The notes under the pieces were generated by a model. The model was not told the DNA's origin, did no database searches, and worked only from the letters and a program-made list of their open reading frames with translations. A stretch of 64,000 nucleotides of DNA, from NCBI GenBank assembly GCA_037200905.1, contig JBBCGN010000001.1:180795-244794 (forward strand). Direction: 5' to 3'. The number at the start of each line of letters is the position of its first letter. Positions within the stretch are counted from its first letter, which is position 1. This DNA is from a bacterium. GTDB lineage: Bacteria > Patescibacteriota > Minisyncoccia > Phycocordibacterales > UBA9973. Positions 1,833-42,058 of this stretch are shown piece after piece. The translations under genes were made by a program, and so were the position numbers.

Positions 1833-4269
1833 TTAGATATTCGCAGCCGGAGCCGGGATATGCGTAGGAGTTACGGTAGCGGGAGCAGGAGCCTTTTGGG
1901 AAGCAGCGACGTGAGGAAGCGGAGCCGGAGTCACGCCGGGGTTCTGGCTGAAGTTGATCAGGTTCGCAGGGATAGGCAGGTTGAGGGTCGGGCACATGAT
2001 GTTGTTCACTTCAGTCTGAGTAGTCAGGTAGAAGATGCCGGTAGTGTCGCTGATGCCCCACGGAGCGAGGACGTTCGTATTGCGGGCCGCCTGGAAGTTT
2101 CGGACTGCGGCTTCGGTCTGAGGGCCGTAGACGCCGTCGATAACGAGGCCTGCGTTCATGTAGTCATTCAAGAAAGTCTGGACCTTCTGAACGGTGAGCA
2201 CGTCGTTCGCATAGCCTACGCGGAGGTATTTCTCGACGTAGATGCCGCAGGTGTTCGATGCTGCGAGCACCTGGCCAGCCGGGCGTCCGCCGCTCTTGTG
2301 GGAAGAACCGCCATGATGGGTGCTTCCGCCGCCGTTGTCAGTCGAGTTGGTCTCGTCGTCATCGGTAGAAACATAAGATTCAGCGTTATCCGCATTGCCG
2401 TCTGAGTGACAGCCCGGATCGAGGATATCGATAAGGTTGTCGCCGTCGTTGTCGACGGTATCCGAACACTGATACGTGTCATCGCCGCCTCCGCCCTGGC
2501 CGTCATCGGTCTCGTCATTGTCGGTAGGAACGTACGAACCCTCGTTGTCGGGGTTACCATCGGTGTGGCAGCCTGGATCAGCCTGGTCGATCTTGCCGTC
2601 GCCGTCGTCATCGCCAGTATTCGAGCACTGAGGGACGTCGGTCTCGTCGTTATCGTTCGGGTTGTAGGTATCGGCATGAGTCGGATTGCCGTCAGTGTGG
2701 CAGCCCGGATCGAGGATATCGATCTTGCCGTCGCCGTCGTTGTCAGCACCATCAGAACACTGCGGGTTGCCACCGCCGTTGTGGATAGGATTCACGGTGA
2801 TAGTGACCGTGTCGGTAGCCGTAGCGCCGTCGTTGTCGGTAACGGTAAGCTCGAATACGTACGTGCCCTCGATCAAGTCAGTGATAGTAGGGTTTACGGC
2901 ATCATCAGGATCTACGGTCGAAGGGCCTGAAACTTCGGTCCAGACGTATGAGTCGATCGTACCGTCAGAATCGGCAGAGCCGGAAGCATCAAGGTCTACG
3001 GTGTTCGCAGGAAGGGTGATGATCTGGTCAGGACCCGCGTCCGCTACCGGAGCATTGTTATCGTCCTCAACTTCTTTCAATACGTTGAATCCGATGCAGT
3101 TGTAGGTGTGGCCTGCTTCGATCGGATTTACGAAGTCGTAGTTGTCGTAGTTCAAGACATCGTTGTTGCAGTAAAATTCTGCTGAAACGTCGTCGCTGCG
3201 AGGGTCAGTGGTGTCGCCTGAAAATGGGATGTAGTCGGCGTCAAATTCTTCGCGTACCCATACTTTGGCACCGACAGGGACAGTGGTCGTTCCTTCAAAA
3301 GGAGTCCATGCCGCGCCGCCTTCTTCAACCTGGTCGCCCGGGTTCGCGGTGCCGTCAGGAGCCCACTGGAAAGTCCAGTCGCTCTGCTCGTGACAATCGG
3401 AATGAAGGGCGAGGAATGCGTTCGCGGTAGAAGCCGTGACGTTCGGTCCGCCTGCGCCCCAGTTCGGGAGGTCGGACTCGTTGTCGCAGATGATCTTGGT
3501 AGCGACGATAGTAGCGGTCGGAGTGTTGCTAGAGTCGTCTACGCACTGTCCGCTAGCGAGATGCTTGCCGGCAGGGACAGTAGTCTGGACGCCGTCGATG
3601 TTCGGACAGACGTCCGTCGGAGGAGTAGGAGCGCAGTGCTTGTGCTCGACATAGTCGTACGCGATGAGGTTCGCGGTACCGTAGCTCGGGTTCAAGTGGG
3701 GCCTGGACAGGGCCTCCGTAGAGGTCAGTCTGCCAGTTGCAGGCCAGGTCGGAAGACAAAACTGATGTGGTATGTTCCCGGGCTGTAGGTGTCGGTGACG
3801 TTGTCGGTCAAGACTTGGTCTTCGAATGGTCGGATCGTACCTGCATGGGAGTAGCTTGAGAAGCTCACTTCCACAGGGACAAGCGCCGGCAGGGACTATG
3901 AGGGTAGCGTTCGCGCCGTGCACCGTACCAGTAGCAGTCTTGGTGGTACAGCCCTGGTTGCCGCCATGATTGTTGAAATCGTGGCCGAAGGTGGTGACAG
4001 CGTCATTGTCGCCATTGCTGTCATCCTGATGGGTGTCAGCGTCCTGGCTGTCGCCGCCATGTCCGTTATCGGAACCAGCGTCATGGCTGTCATTGGGACG
4101 GGCCATGATTGTTATTGAAAACGCTTACCACTTTCTTGTGGATGGAGCCGTGCACAGCCTTCGAGTGGCTGCTCGCCGAAACGATAGCGGGATGAGCGAA
4201 ATTCGAGATCGCTGCGAGACCGGCAAAGCCGAAAACCAAAACCATTACTGCGTAGTGAAATTTCTTCAT
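1833..4269 (-). CDS. secreted surface protein: signal peptide, PKD/Ig-like domain, 3 Cys/Asp-rich DNDGDG repeats, C-terminal peptidoglycan-binding domain; several apparent frameshifts
   Basis: Track ORF 1833..4106 lacks a signal peptide. The ATG at 4269 gives MKKFHYAVMVLVFGFAGLAAISNFAHPAIVSA in a frame offset by 1 nt, joining near 4100. Between about 3690 and 3890 the plausible protein text jumps through two other frames (LVPVEVSFSSYSHAGTIRPFEDQVLTDNVTDTYSPGTYHISFVF, then SSDLACNWQTDLYGGPVQAP). PKD-like segment: PVADAGPDQIITLPANTVDLDASGSADSDGTIDSYVWT...VFELTVTDNDGATATDTVTITV. PG_binding_1-like segment: VQTFLNDYMNAGLVIDGVYGPQTEAAVRNFQ. Confidence 0.75.
2340..2765 (-). repeat. three tandem coding repeats (~130-160 nt) of a Cys/Asp-rich motif
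   Basis: Repeat 1: QCSDGADNDGDGKIDILDPGCHTDGNP...NDNDETD. Repeat 2: QCSNTGDDDGDGKIDQADPGCHTDGNP...TDNDETD. Repeat 3: QCSDTVDNDGDNLIDILDPGCHSDGNA...TDDDETN. The DNA units start near 2763, 2632 and 2471 on the minus strand. Confidence 0.85.
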
Positions 4270-38519: not shown

Positions 38520-38978
38520 TTACTGAAAGATCTTGACGAGAGCAGCAACGCCCTCTTCAAGGGCGTGCACTTGATTGCCGAGGATATTGGCGAGCTCGGC
38601 GTTCACGGTGACGGTATCGTCCTGCCCTGCCGTCTCCCATTTTTTCATGAGTTCTACTTCGTGCTCCGAGTGGATTATCTCGTTGGCGATGTCTTCTATG
38701 TCTTCGAGCAGTTTTGTCTGGCTCTCGTCGAGCTGCGGGCCGAAATCTTTCTTCAGGCGGAAGACGGTCGAGCGGAGCTCGCCGACGGCGAGATGCAGCT
38801 TGATGAGCTTGTGCACGTCGAGATTGTGAAAACGCTCGGACGCCGGCCCCTTGTAGTCGAAGGTGCCCCAATAGCGCTCGTCGCGGTCGAAGTCTGCCGC
38901 GATCTTCTCTATTATCTTTTTGAGGGCCGGCTGTATTTCGTGCATTTCTTTAGGCGTTTGCGGTGATTCGAATCCCAT
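38520..38978 (-). CDS. hypothetical helical protein (152 aa)
   Basis: ORF tightly packed between neighbouring genes on the same strand. No motif recognised. Confidence 0.5.
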   Translation of the reverse strand: MGFESPQTPKEMHEIQPALKKIIEKIAADFDRDERYWGTFDYKGPASERFHNLDVHKLIKLHLAVGELRSTVFRLKKDFGPQLDESQTKLLEDIEDIANEIIHSEHEVELMKKWETAGQDDTVTVNAELANILGNQVHALEEGVAALVKIFQ

Positions 38979-38996: not shown

Positions 38997-39719
38997 TTAC
39001 TTCTTTCCCTTCTTCCACTCTTCAATATCCTTATGGTTTCCGGAGAGCAATACGGGTGGTACTTTATAGCTCTTATTCTTGTATTTCAAAATTTCCGGCC
39101 GCGTGTAGACCTCGCTCGAGGACACGCGCTCCTCTTCGAGCGATTCGTATTTGCCGAGCACGCCAGGAATCTGGCGCGAGATGGAATCGATCAAGAGCAT
39201 GGCCGGCAGCTCGCCGCCGGTCAGGACATAATCCCCCACGGAAACCTCTTCCGCCTTGAAAATCTTTTTCACGCGGGCATCGATGCCTTCGTACCGGCCG
39301 CAGATCATGATGATGTCGGTATATTTCTTCACAGCTGATTTTGCGTATGCCGTCTCGAACCTCTTTCCTGACGGAGAGAAAAGAATTATTTTAATCTTCG
39401 AGCCGCTCAGAAGTTTTCTGAATGGTCTGGCCGAGGCAGTAGCCGAGGAGATCCGAGGACCTGAAGAAAACTTCTGAGCGGTGAGAACTGCCTTCTCAAT
39501 CGCTTTCAGCATCGGCTCGGCACGCATGACCATGCCCGGGCCGCCGCCATATGGTTTGTCATCGACTGGTCGGTAATTATTCTTTGGAGCTTTGATGAAG
39601 TTGCGCGGATTGTAGAACTTCACATCAATCAGCTTATTCTTCAGTGCCCGCCCGATAATAGACTCATCGAGATATGAGCTGAAGCTGTCGGGAAAAATGG
39701 TGATGATATGAAAACGCAT
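38997..39719 (-). CDS. trmD: tRNA (guanine37-N1)-methyltransferase TrmD
   Basis: MRFHIITIFPDSF, DDKPYGGGPGMVM, ICGRYEGIDARV, SVGDYVLTGGELPAMLLIDSISR, VPPVLLSGNH. I take Met10 of the track ORF as the start. Confidence 0.9.
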   Translation of the reverse strand: MRFHIITIFPDSFSSYLDESIIGRALKNKLIDVKFYNPRNFIKAPKNNYRPVDDKPYGGGPGMVMRAEPMLKAIEKAVLTAQKFSSGPRISSATASARPFRKLLSGSKIKIILFSPSGKRFETAYAKSAVKKYTDIIMICGRYEGIDARVKKIFKAEEVSVGDYVLTGGELPAMLLIDSISRQIPGVLGKYESLEEERVSSSEVYTRPEILKYKNKSYKVPPVLLSGNHKDIEEWKKGKK

Positions 39720-39763
39720 AAGCACACTATAGTATAAAAACAGCAAATAAAAAAGCCTGAACT

Positions 39764-39805
39764 AAAGTGACACACTTTCGGCCTATGCTAAGTTTGTGTC
39801 ACTTT
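39764..39805. repeat. hairpin module A (inverted copy of module B)
   Basis: AAAGTGACACA (39764-39774) pairs with TGTGTCACTTT (39795-39805). The loop contains GCCTATGC. It abuts the stop codon of 39806..40282. Confidence 0.8.
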
Positions 39806-40282
39806 TCATGTATACGGTTTGGCCAGTTTGAAGGTCTTTATGCATTCCTTCAGCTTTATTTCTTTCATATACTCCAAAAAGTCTTTGGGCAGGGGCGACG
39901 GTCCTACCCAGACGCTCTTTTGTATCATGCTGTAGCCGAATTTTTTGAGATGAAAACGGAACCATTCCCTTTCAGCTTTCTGTGCCACCGGCACGTCAAA
40001 CATCACCAAGAGATCCTTTACTGAACTCATCGTCGCCGGCTTGTGAAAAATCCGGAGCGAGTCTGCCTTTTTCCTCAAATATTCCCTACCCTTAGCGGTC
40101 AAGATAAAACCGTTCAATTCTTTCCTGATCAGGTCATTTTTCGCCAATCTATCGGCACTAGACCGGAGGCTTCTCTTCGAGTAACGGCCAAGCCGAGGCA
40201 CACCGAAAAGATTTACTGGTATCCCTTTATATTTCAGCTGTGTGCGCGAAAGTTCCCTTAAAATTTCTTCCACCAGAGACAT
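39806..40282 (-). CDS. PaaX-like regulator: winged-helix N-terminus plus a Cas2-like/PaaX_C-like ferredoxin-fold domain
   Basis: I take Met45 (MSLVEEILRELSRT) as the start, because upstream codons cross hairpin B. wHTH-like text: RSLRSSADRLAKNDLIRKELNGFILTAKGREYL. C-terminal text LLVMFDVPVAQKAEREWFRFHLKKFGYSMIQKSVWVGPSPLP matches the PaaX/Cas2-like pattern (hhhhaD.P...R..h+..L...GF..h..ShWhsP). Confidence 0.5.
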   Translation of the reverse strand: MSLVEEILRELSRTQLKYKGIPVNLFGVPRLGRYSKRSLRSSADRLAKNDLIRKELNGFILTAKGREYLRKKADSLRIFHKPATMSSVKDLLVMFDVPVAQKAEREWFRFHLKKFGYSMIQKSVWVGPSPLPKDFLEYMKEIKLKECIKTFKLAKPYT

Positions 40283-40306
40283 GCCCGCATCATATCTCAA
40301 ACTGCC

Positions 40307-40346
40307 AAATGACACAAACCCCGCATAGGCAGAGTTTGTGTCATTT
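40307..40346. repeat. hairpin module B (inverted copy of module A)
   Basis: AAATGACACAAAC (40307-40319) pairs perfectly with GTTTGTGTCATTT (40334-40346). The loop contains GCATAGGC, the reverse complement of the loop core of module A. Confidence 0.8.
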
Positions 40347-40429
40347 CGTTGTGCATATGTATAAATAAAAAACGGCCAAATAAAAAAGCTTCCGCCGTGG
40401 AAGCTTTTAAACATGCAAAAATTAAGGAA

Positions 40430-41083
40430 TCATTCGGTCACCGCCCACTCGCCTGCTAAAAACTTTTCTGACATAGTTTCCTTGTACGCATCAATGAGCG
40501 AATCGATGTCGGGATTAAGCAGTAGTATTTTTTCAACGATATCCGCTTTCAGTGTCTTTTCCGTCTCCCGCAATTCTACAGCTTCTTCAAACTTTTTTGC
40601 TCTCACATATCCATGCTTTTCTGTTTTTATATCATCGAGCCTCACCTCGAGGTGCAGTATCTCATCGTTAAGCGTAATGCGTTCATGGATATCTTCCGGA
40701 AGATACAGGATGGCCTGAAAGCCGGTCGTGAGTTCGGAAAGGTACGCGAGCGGTTCGTGGAAGGAGATAGGAACGAAATAATTTTTCTCGCGCACTTCGA
40801 TGCATAGCACCATTTTCTTCTTGCGGCCATGGCTGACTTCCTGAGGAAGCATGCCGTTGAATTCGCCCGGAGAGAAAGTGACGCACCCCTTGCCAATAAG
40901 GGGCAAGGTGATCTTTATATTCTGGGAAATCAATCCGCCCCTTTCTTCAGGAAGCCTGAGTCCGGGCGTAGTGATCTTGCCACCCAGAGCTACGATTTTG
41001 AGGCAGAGATCGGTAAAATTGCCGTGCCTCGGCAAGAGGAAAATCCTTTTGTCATCGCCAATGACGAGTTCTGTAATTTTCAT
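40430..41083 (-). CDS. hypothetical protein with a UVR-like motif
   Basis: 217 aa. VRAKKFEEAVELRETEKTLKADI resembles the UvrB/UvrC (UVR) helical hairpin motif. The rest is unassigned. It occupies the position where rimM is often found, between rpsP/KH and trmD. Confidence 0.45.
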   Translation of the reverse strand: MKITELVIGDDKRIFLLPRHGNFTDLCLKIVALGGKITTPGLRLPEERGGLISQNIKITLPLIGKGCVTFSPGEFNGMLPQEVSHGRKKKMVLCIEVREKNYFVPISFHEPLAYLSELTTGFQAILYLPEDIHERITLNDEILHLEVRLDDIKTEKHGYVRAKKFEEAVELRETEKTLKADIVEKILLLNPDIDSLIDAYKETMSEKFLAGEWAVTE

Positions 41084-41165
41084 GATTATTAAGTTTTAGA
41101 GTTACAAAATCGGTTTTGCTGTAATAATACTATATTTTTCAAAAAAGTCAATTCATCTCCTGCAC

Positions 41166-41197
41166 ACAAAAAACTCGGATTGCTCCGAGTTTTTTGT
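41166..41197. terminator. bidirectional terminator after the KH-domain gene
   Basis: AAAAAACTCGG-attgct-CCGAGTTTTTT. Confidence 0.8.
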
Positions 41198-41213
41198 GTA
41201 TTTATTTTAAAAA

Positions 41214-41552
41214 CTAGATTCCTTTGAGATCTTCCATCGCCTCATCAACGGTTTTCATCGTTGGACTGGCTGGGCGTTCATGGACGATGTCTGCATGCGT
41301 GCCTCCTTCCGGCTCGTTGATCTTCAGGTTCACGCGGGCATTGTTCTTCATGCCGATGATGCGGAGCAACGTGCGGATGGCTTTCGCAGTGTTGCCCATG
41401 CGGCCGATGATCTTGCCCATGTCGGCAGGATTGACGGTGAGGGTGATGAGCACGCCCATCTCGTCGACAGTGCGGTCTATCTCTACGTCGTCAGGATTAT
41501 CGACGAGGGCTTTCACTACGTACTCGAGGAAGGCCTTATCAGTGTCTTGCAT
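41214..41552 (-). CDS. KH-domain RNA-binding protein (YlqC/UPF0109-like)
   Basis: LEYVVKALVDNPDDVEIDRTVDEMGVLITLTVNPADMGKIIGRMGNTAKAIRTLLRIIG contains the GxxG KH loop. It shows the usual synteny after rpsP. Confidence 0.85.
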   Translation of the reverse strand: MQDTDKAFLEYVVKALVDNPDDVEIDRTVDEMGVLITLTVNPADMGKIIGRMGNTAKAIRTLLRIIGMKNNARVNLKINEPEGGTHADIVHERPASPTMKTVDEAMEDLKGI

Positions 41553-41749: not shown

Positions 41750-42058
41750 CTATTTCGCCGCCTTCATTTCTTTTCGCTTGCCGGTAGGCTTCTTCTTGGA
41801 CAAGACGTTGATCTTCTTGCCCGGGATGACTTTCTCGTGCACGAGGAAATTGTGCATAGTATCGGAGAGCTTGGCGCCCTTGCTCATCCAGTATTTGATG
41901 CGGTCAGCCTTGAAAGCAGTCTCTCCGGCCTTGGGATTGTAGGTACCCACGATCTCGAGGAATCGGCCGCTCTTGGTGCTGTTCTTGGAATCGGTCAAAA
42001 CCGCCCTGAAAGCCGGGTCGTTCTTCCTGCCGATGCGCTGTAATCTGATCTTTAACAT
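41750..42058 (-). CDS. rpsP: 30S ribosomal protein S16
   Basis: I take Met55 of ORF 41750..42220 as the start: MLKIRLQRIGRKNDPAFRAVLTDS...GTYNP...DRIKYWMSKGAKLSDT. Confidence 0.9.
   Translation of the reverse strand: MLKIRLQRIGRKNDPAFRAVLTDSKNSTKSGRFLEIVGTYNPKAGETAFKADRIKYWMSKGAKLSDTMHNFLVHEKVIPGKKINVLSKKKPTGKRKEMKAAK

Follow-up and report, generated by a model that had tools for sequence, protein, structure and literature searches.

Why does a small gene inside a ribosomal protein operon carry one long palindrome at each of its ends? The locus lies in a 64-kb stretch of Patescibacteriota DNA (64,000 nucleotides of contig JBBCGN010000001.1; hereafter, the window), in which two ~40-nt palindromic modules, A and B, bracket a gene for a PaaX- and Cas2-like protein (hereafter, X, for gene and protein alike). 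The original prediction had described the modules as hairpins that are inverted copies of each other and had offered three explanations for them, i.e., a pair of operators for autoregulation, a terminator or attenuator pair, or the terminal inverted repeats of a small mobile cassette. Based on comparisons with relatives, modules A and B are probably cognate double-stranded DNA operators of X. The autoregulatory pair is favoured by palindromes that stand at both ends of the gene, by palindrome arms that co-vary with the predicted recognition helix of X, and by the overlap of the upstream copy with the predicted -35 element. The features concerned are:

39806..40282, minus strand: gene X, 158 aa, with a winged helix at about residues 1-75 and a Cas2-like domain at about residues 88-155
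40307..40346, minus strand: module B, the predicted upstream (UP) operator, a 36-40 bp palindrome with its centre 44 nt before the ATG
39764..39805, minus strand: module A, the predicted downstream (DOWN) operator, a palindrome in register with the design of the family

Both modules were found where they had been placed, with module A starting at the base directly after the TGA of X (39806-39808), module B ending 24 nt before the ATG (40282-40280; about 25 nt in the original prediction), and 542 bp between the two centres. On the gene (minus) strand, module B (40346-40307) reads AAATGACACAAACTCTGC-CTAT-GCGGGGTTTGTGTCATTT, of which the palindrome proper (40344-40309) is ATGACACAAACTCTGC-CTAT-GCGGGGTTTGTGTCAT, plus A/T flanks; module A (39805-39764) reads AAAGTGACACAAACTTAGC-ATAG-GCCGAAAGTGTGTCACTTT, with GTGACACAAACTTAGC-ATAG-GCCGAAAGTGTGTCAC (39802-39767) as the palindrome proper, again plus A/T flanks. 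The two share identical outer arms (TGACACA...TGTGTCA). In module A, perfect pairing is limited to the outer 11 nt and the inner core is degenerate and mostly lost; its folding energy as RNA is -16.4 kcal/mol (z = -4.0 vs shuffled sequence), and that of module B is -28.2 kcal/mol (z = -7.8). A zero-mismatch scan for TGACACA-N20-TGTGTCA returned only the two modules in the 64-kb window, where TGACACAAAC is confined to the module arms and where no further copies of the palindrome or paralogs of X were found. The claim that the modules are inverted copies of each other stands in part: the inverted alignment (78%) barely beats the direct one (73%) because each module is itself palindromic, and the orientation is set by the central 4 nt (CTAT vs ATAG) alone. 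Among relatives, this central tetranucleotide is variable (CATG, TATC/GATA, ACCT/AGGT, and others) and its relative orientation between the UP and DOWN sites is inverted in some and direct in others, showing that mutual inversion of A and B is not a conserved property.

To place the bracket in a family context, one genome per species was scanned, giving 276 relatives, and 80 loci were kept. The X family comprises 1698 word-indexed matches and 838 clusters (50% identity, E <= 1e-10), nearly all of them 150-180 aa long. X is single-copy in the window, and several genomes contain three paralogs, which share only 51-60% identity and occupy conserved contexts. Using a relaxed site definition (a GC-N4-GC core plus at least 11 of 16 arm pairs, at most 130 nt upstream or at most 150 nt downstream), UP sites were present at 72/78 loci (92%) and DOWN sites at 64/78 loci (82%), compared with 1/274 control windows of the same loci (0.4%). 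Relatives that carry the gene without the repeats, which the original prediction held to count against it, are the minority on both sides. A stricter core gave 52 UP and 48 DOWN sites and 5 elsewhere, in 474 kb. The bracket of one gene and two sites is a family trait and did not arise by chance.

The sites follow a common design. Read from the centre outward, the family half-site is GCAGA(G/A)(T/A)TTGT followed by 4-5 variable bases, and palindromy reaches ~19 nt per arm before it falls to the background level. The inner core, CTGC-N4-GCAG, is common to the whole family and to all paralogs, and the invariant part of the half-site is TGT/ACA. Compared with this design, module A has perfect outer arms and a decayed inner core. 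In group-1 relatives the UP palindrome has the same design as module B and is centred at -44 to -48, and a site directly after the stop codon is also found in distant homologues (31-38% identity) on metagenome contigs (L099, L121, and L122).

The PaaX/Cas2-like winged-helix gene that had been proposed between the modules was confirmed by profile matches and a two-domain structural model. X matched Pfam PaaX_M (PF20803, the Cas2-like middle domain of PaaX; E = 3.2e-12, 46.8 bits, cutoff 24) and Pfam Cas2 (E = 2e-6), and gave no match to Pfam PF07848 or PaaX_C. Its residues 34-148 aligned to positions 32-146 of the 279 positions of the NCBIfam PaaX profile (TIGR02277; 27.7 bits, cutoff 264.6), the NCBIfam cas2 profile (TIGR01573) scored 28.1 bits, just over its cutoff of 24.5, and PADLOC matches were restricted to the Cas2 domain (Cas2_II, E = 3.6e-9); a PHROGs profile search gave no match for X. 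The AlphaFold2 model built from 119 sequences (predicted local distance difference test [pLDDT] 85), which replaced a 29-sequence model with a poor N-domain (pLDDT 69), shows a winged helix (H3-13, H36-48, and wing strands 52-61) and a beta-alpha-beta-beta-alpha-beta domain. The best Foldseek matches in the PDB that cover both domains were Rv0674 (3kfw) and E. coli W PaaX (8a39), over 127-128 columns (probability 0.97-0.99; E-values 0.02-0.03). Taken separately, the C-domain matched Cas2 proteins (probability 0.95-1.0), whereas the N-domain matched the operator-bound DNA-binding domain of CggR (~1 Å over 42-43 residues) and showed a weak sequence match to BlaI (E = 0.03). The F95-D96-x-P98 motif at the end of beta-1, i.e., the Asp motif of Cas2, is invariant or nearly so in the 119 sequences. 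No tandem or CRISPR repeats were found in the 64-kb window, no cas1 among the genes adjoining X, no cas1 or CRISPR array among the conserved neighbours of the 80 loci, and no paa genes near X in the window or in the neighbour clusters of the same 80 loci, which consist of housekeeping genes. X is a truncated PaaX-like protein (a 'mini-PaaX') and not a CRISPR Cas2: it departs from PaaX proper in its C-terminal domain and paa linkage, and from Cas2 proper in cas1 and CRISPR linkage.

The link between this protein and its flanking sites is visible in one helix:

codons 40139..40177, minus strand: predicted recognition helix of X, residues 36-48 (KRSLRSSADRLAK), a helix in the AlphaFold2 model that aligns to the recognition helix of BlaI

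The outer 5-mer of the palindrome is identical between the UP and DOWN sites of one locus in 30/38 cases, compared with 10.5% of cross-locus pairs. Paralogs of one genome had different outer arms wherever at least two of them had a detected site (9 of 10 genomes examined); for example, one metagenome-assembled genome contains three arm types (TGGTACA, CTCTACA, and GGCAACA). The arm type follows residues 35-42 of X, with TGT(G/A)TCA accompanying xRSxR(T/S)(T/S), TGTAGCA accompanying SKSVR(A/G)T, TGTACCA accompanying (E/D)GSIRNT, and TGTTGCC accompanying KKSxQIT. Using mutual information with average-product correction, we found that residues 36, 37, 40, 41, and 44 are 5 of the top 7 protein columns for arm positions 12-16, in statistics that ignore shared ancestry and are inflated by it. 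Shared ancestry would not by itself focus co-variation in one helix. The link of arm types to helix 36-48 is the chief reason for thinking that X recognises the sites on its flanks as duplex DNA, and the pairs of arms and helices would constitute a first recognition code, relating residues 36-44 to outer-arm bases.

The UP copy is built into the predicted promoter of X, for which two hexamers were assigned:

40312..40317, minus strand: predicted -35 hexamer TTGTGT, formed by the inner bases of the module B outer arm that faces the promoter
40289..40294, minus strand: predicted -10 hexamer TATGAT, 17 nt after the -35 hexamer and followed by 6 nt and the ATG

A palindromic site thus overlaps a predicted core promoter element of its own gene, and this geometry recurs in relatives. 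In an 85-nt upstream alignment, 64/69 family loci have a TATAAT-like hexamer (at least 5 of 6) ending 6-9 nt before the ATG, and 26/33 loci have 17 nt between the TTGTnn of the arm and this -10 hexamer. TTG is present in the promoter-proximal arm at 34/54 UP sites vs 20/51 DOWN sites (p = 0.02, with phylogeny not accounted for). Because the -10 hexamer lies 6-9 nt from the ATG, mRNAs of the X family are predicted to be leaderless, and the genomes at hand suggest that leaderless mRNAs may be common in these Paceibacteria. TATAAT-like -10 hexamers ending 6-7 nt before the ATG were also observed at trmD, both in the window (39717-39731) and in three relatives (L128, L130, and L131, near position 4000).

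The downstream copy has a looser geometry. Among relatives, the DOWN site lies 0 to ~80 nt from the stop codon, its distance to the next gene start is variable, and the next gene is often convergent. No fixed geometry between the DOWN site and trmD was found, the distances from its centre to the trmD ATG being 53, 65, 71, 76, and 100 nt. Because the distances to neighbours vary and the next gene is often convergent, the role of the DOWN site must relate to X itself, as a partner in looping or as a roadblock, one or the other of which it may be. The centre-to-centre distances between UP and DOWN sites cluster at 539-546 bp (the main cluster, which includes the 542 bp of the window), 552-568 bp, and 574-586 bp.

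From these observations we propose a mechanism in which each operator would present four symmetric elements ~10 bp apart over ~40 bp, a spacing that would place all four on one face of the helix. The outer half-sites (TGACAC / GTGTCA) would be read by recognition helix 36-48 and set the specificity, and the inner core (CTGC-N4-GCAG) could be read by a second dimer, by the wing, or by the Cas2-like domain. X bound to module B should occlude the -35 element, because the arm contains TTGTGT, and would compete with RNA polymerase, leading to negative autoregulation. Negative autoregulation is the most economical reading, since E. coli PaaX, which binds the inverted repeat TGATTC-N27-GAATCA, uses steric hindrance to repress Px, its own promoter (PMC9493321). 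Module A most likely serves as an auxiliary operator: looping out the gene could raise the local concentration of the repressor, or a protein bound there could form a roadblock and shield the unit from transcription of the rpsP-trmD operon.

Sites were also detected beyond the bracket. Three extra sites with locus-specific arms stand after KhpA and upstream of the promoter of an open reading frame (ORF), ORF277 (L008, core 1830-1841), upstream of a purD-like gene (L015 1128), and inside an argS-like ORF (L016 5172), and a fourth extra site of the family type separates a recJ-like gene from a small ORF (L085 4053); the four hint at possible small regulons beyond self-control. An exact-motif metagenome scan did not recover close orthologues of X and gave palindromes that share this design but belong to other genes, in other lineages of the candidate phyla radiation (CPR). 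On contigs of these lineages (L114, L115, L118, L102 at 1681-1716 and 3221-3256, and L088 at 121-156 and 807-842), TGACACA-type palindromes stand away from a close X homologue: identical 36-mers occur at different loci, two identical copies bracket a 414-aa ORF, and a copy comes after each of the tandem RelE-like toxin-antitoxin pairs. These non-bracket palindromes, which could not be linked to a cognate protein, may be regulon sites or dispersed elements.

The genes around X, all on the minus strand, are rpsP (~41750-42040), a KhpA-type KH protein (41214-41552), ORF217 (40430-41083), X, and trmD (38997-39719). The original prediction that X interrupts the rpsP-KhpA-...-trmD array holds when the window is compared with its closest trmD relatives, but in many Nomurabacteria-like genomes X is a stable resident of this place: the subgroup of the window lies between KhpA and trmD in L001-L010, L012, and L018, with 0-2 further genes inserted. 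Empty rpsP-trmD arrays, for which a search had been suggested, do exist. In the four closest trmD relatives (71-82% identity; L128-L131), the array runs from rpsP and KhpA through a terminator and a TATAAT hexamer to trmD, with neither X nor any palindrome of the family in 8.7 kb; three of them (L128, L130, and L131) are without any gene at the position of X, and L129 holds an unrelated ORF there. More distant trmD relatives (55-69%) carry the X unit at the same place. The unit was gained or lost as a block, and deletion between repeats and insertion are both possible; the empty sites are explained equally well by deletion. Just outside the modules, the window contains a T-rich direct repeat of ~24-30 nt (GCTTTTTTATTTG..GTTTTT; z = 4.4, the highest among the loci tested):

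40366..40389, minus strand: first copy of the flank direct repeat (GCTTTTTTATTTGGCCGTTTTTTA), the tail of the ORF217 terminator, close to the outer edge of module B
39733..39756, minus strand: second copy of the flank direct repeat (GCTTTTTTATTTGCTGTTTTTATA), close to the outer edge of module A and preceding the -10 hexamer of trmD

At the empty sites of L129 and L131, the motif of this repeat occurs once. The repeat, which is not a family feature, may be the trace of a rearrangement or insertion, or a substrate for deletion of the unit.

The strong folding of both modules invites an explanation at the RNA level, in which they would be hairpins (terminators, RNase III sites, or stabilisers) that cut the X mRNA out of the rpsP-trmD polycistron and are possibly bound by X. 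Module B is fully paired on the sense strand only, via G·U pairs, in relatives some DOWN copies precede T-runs or continue into shapes resembling bidirectional terminators, and some Cas2 and VapD proteins are known to be ribonucleases. We regard this explanation as quite unlikely. The 105 sites show none of the G·U bias expected of a hairpin formed by one strand: arm mismatches on the sense strand number 45 G·T, 44 A·C, and 113 transversions, mostly at spacer positions 6-8, where unpaired transversions are frequent. The paralog-specific arms that co-vary with the recognition helix argue for base readout in duplex DNA, and the UP copy lies upstream of the conserved -10 hexamer and of the predicted transcription start, outside the predicted transcript of X. 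The terminator or attenuator pair of the original prediction is not borne out either. Neither module was flagged in a terminator scan, which flagged 40384-40408 and 41164-41199, the tails of the modules (TTTGGCAG and TTTAGTTC) contain no U-tract, and Rfam gave no match for the modules at gathering score. Canonical terminators already adjoin the modules, and module B is not needed as a terminator, because that of ORF217 stands beside it:

40384..40408, minus strand: intrinsic terminator of ORF217, AAAAGCTTCC-ACGGC-GGAAGCTTTT followed by a T-tract; it does not belong to the operator pair

Nor does the motif occur in this lineage as a generic terminator at unrelated genes. The absence of a G·U bias in the arms, together with modules that do not resemble terminators and with palindromy that ends at ~19 nt per arm, about the size of a footprint, supports the reading of the sites as double-stranded DNA operators. 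A candidate third family site after KhpA (41164-41199) was rejected, since it corresponds to the usual terminator of KhpA, which has homologous counterparts in L008 and L129; the superficial likeness of its 15-nt arms (ACACAAAAAACTCGG / CCGAGTTTTTTGTGT) to the family palindrome is, given this homology, probably due to chance.

A mobile or selfish cassette would account for the bracket in another way, with the palindromes as hairpin or cruciform ends and X as a structure- and sequence-specific nuclease or recombinase that moves its own gene, loosely analogous to REP/RAYT or IS200/IS605 elements. In REP/RAYT and IS200/IS605 TnpA systems, a small gene is flanked by cognate palindromic repeats that are paralog-specific, and here, too, cognate palindromes of a type of its own bracket each paralog, several of which share one small genome. 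Clean empty sites in the closest trmD relatives with the unit present in more distant ones, the direct repeat around the window unit that is single-copy in empty-site relatives, the F-D-x-P retained at the end of beta-1, and the identical TGACACA-type palindromes that in other CPR lineages are dispersed, flank the 414-aa ORF, or come after toxin-antitoxin cassettes all speak for movement. It is nonetheless quite improbable that the unit is such a cassette. The neighbours of each subfamily are constant across many genomes, and X diverges about in step with its own (73% identity in L008, vs 68-83% for trmD, KhpA, and rpsP). No target-site duplication was found, in that no related locus tested showed a significant flank repeat (z <= 2.4). 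No transposase or recombinase is recognisable, X being the sole protein encoded by the unit, and a check of the X alignment by eye revealed no HUH/Tyr nuclease signature or other transposase motif. The only two copies in 64 kb both flank X, and the UP palindrome has a fixed promoter geometry that the end of a transposon would not need. A bolder version, in which the units would be selfish CPR modules whose winged-helix Cas2-fold protein acts on the hairpin or cruciform form of its two palindromes and so excises, inserts, or protects the gene that encodes it, strikes us as highly improbable; if true, the units would be a novel type of minimal element and might even be living relatives of an ancestral, pre-CRISPR Cas2. 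The empty sites, paralog-private repeats, Asp motif, and dispersed copies that it draws on are compatible with a pure regulator, although not required by it. Finally, the palindromes could be bound by another factor or be structural DNA, with a historical and not a functional link to X. The core CTGC-N4-GCAG, identical for all paralogs, could serve a common factor, and other lineages have similar palindromes at a distance from any close homologue, but the outer arms are paralog-specific and co-vary with the helix of X itself, the sites vanish together with the gene in empty-site relatives, and > 80-90% of family members keep both sites, so that we give this explanation very little credence.

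Several observations weigh against cognate operators for autoregulation, or at least complicate them. The strongly conserved inner core is unaccounted for, and 40 bp is more than one winged-helix dimer would ordinarily require; module A, without most of this core, may bind poorly. An operator centre at about -44 would equally fit a class-II-type activator. The helical-phasing signal in the distances between UP and DOWN sites is marginal (Rayleigh p ~0.01-0.02, uncorrected for relatedness and for the periods tried), and the co-variation statistics of helix and arms include shared ancestry. The Foldseek matches to 3kfw and 8a39 have weak E-values in spite of their high probability. Because palindromes of the same design stand at unrelated genes in other CPR lineages, with no close homologue nearby, the sites reach beyond self-regulation.

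Among known systems, the operators and protein described here come closest to PaaX, the phenylacetyl-CoA-responsive repressor of paa genes in E. coli and Pseudomonas (8a39, 3l09, and 3kfw), in which the same winged helix is followed by a Cas2-like domain that serves as the dimerisation module. Both have a widely spaced inverted-repeat operator, and repression of the own promoter is proposed for X. However, X is half the size (158 vs ~300 aa) and is without the C-terminal ligand-binding domain, its site has an extra conserved inner core, its sites are paired around the gene, and it belongs to a multi-paralog family of diversified specificities in CPR/Paceibacteria hosts. The C-terminal 70 residues of X are a true Cas2-fold homologue that keeps the Asp motif of beta-1, whereas Cas2 is a stand-alone protein of ~90-110 aa encoded beside cas1 and a CRISPR array and X is a 158-aa fusion with an N-terminal DNA-binding domain. 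NCBI and JGI label many family members (P0001, P0016, P0019, P0037, and others) 'CRISPR-associated endonuclease Cas2', a name that stems from the marginal TIGR01573 score (28.1 vs 24.5). The name is a systematic misannotation across hundreds of protein clusters, and genes of the X family should be left out of orphan cas2 counts when CPR genomes are surveyed for CRISPR.

Other resemblances concern the layout of sites and single domains. In lambda CI (OR/OL), in the repressors of phage 186 and TP901-1, and at the auxiliary operators of lac and gal, distant operators cooperate by looping, which sharpens autoregulation. As in lambda CI, the repressor gene would lie between two sets of its own operators, but the fold is unrelated, X has one palindrome per side, and the predicted ~540-bp loop would hold only X. 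REP copies number in the tens to hundreds and are scattered, whereas 100 X sites flank the gene and 5 others occur in 474 kb (2 and 0 in the window); compared with REP/RAYT, X is without the HUH/Tyr signature (by eye) and its UP copy is part of a promoter. BlaI-type operators are palindromes built on TACA/TGTA, and BlaI/MecI/CopY and CggR resemble X in the match to its N-domain and in the TGT/ACA of its half-site; X differs from them in its second domain, its much longer site, and the lack of a sensor-protease partner.

Literature searches on the X family, on Cas2-like winged-helix regulators, and on PaaX in CPR returned nothing specific, and to our knowledge almost nothing has been established about transcription control in CPR/Patescibacteria. 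Sequence alone suffices to read the operators of the X family, its promoter geometry, and a candidate for a first recognition code, so the model could be tested in vitro without culturing. One cognate operator at each end of a gene is an unusually compact design, which may show how a gene inside a strongly transcribed ribosomal operon is insulated and controls itself, and the naturally orthogonal pairs of X proteins and operators are possible engineering parts.

Away from the rpsP-trmD operon, the other X subfamilies also keep their contexts across genomes, beside Nudix-, glyA-, tmk-, dut-, and recJ-like genes. Judged by eye from the beginnings of their sequences, the neighbours of X paralogs are often nucleotide housekeeping genes (Nudix-like, dUTPase-like, thymidylate kinase, SHMT-like, HIT-like, and recJ-like; L008-L087). 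Because many neighbours are transcribed divergently from X, the UP palindrome may also control the divergent gene.

Two further genes and one absence complete the description of the operon. ORF217 (40430-41083, minus strand) gave no match in Pfam, NCBIfam, PADLOC, or PHROGs, and no homology was detected between it and the ORFs at the same position in relatives; because relatives hold nothing or unrelated ORFs of 188-500 aa there, this slot turns over quickly. Its C-terminus (RAKKFEEAVELRETEKTL) resembles a UVR motif by eye. In relatives, trmD is followed by rpoB, which is not the case in the window, where ORF152 (38520-38978, minus strand) lies downstream of trmD and shows a faint DksA-like NCBIfam match (E = 0.0095, far under the cutoff).

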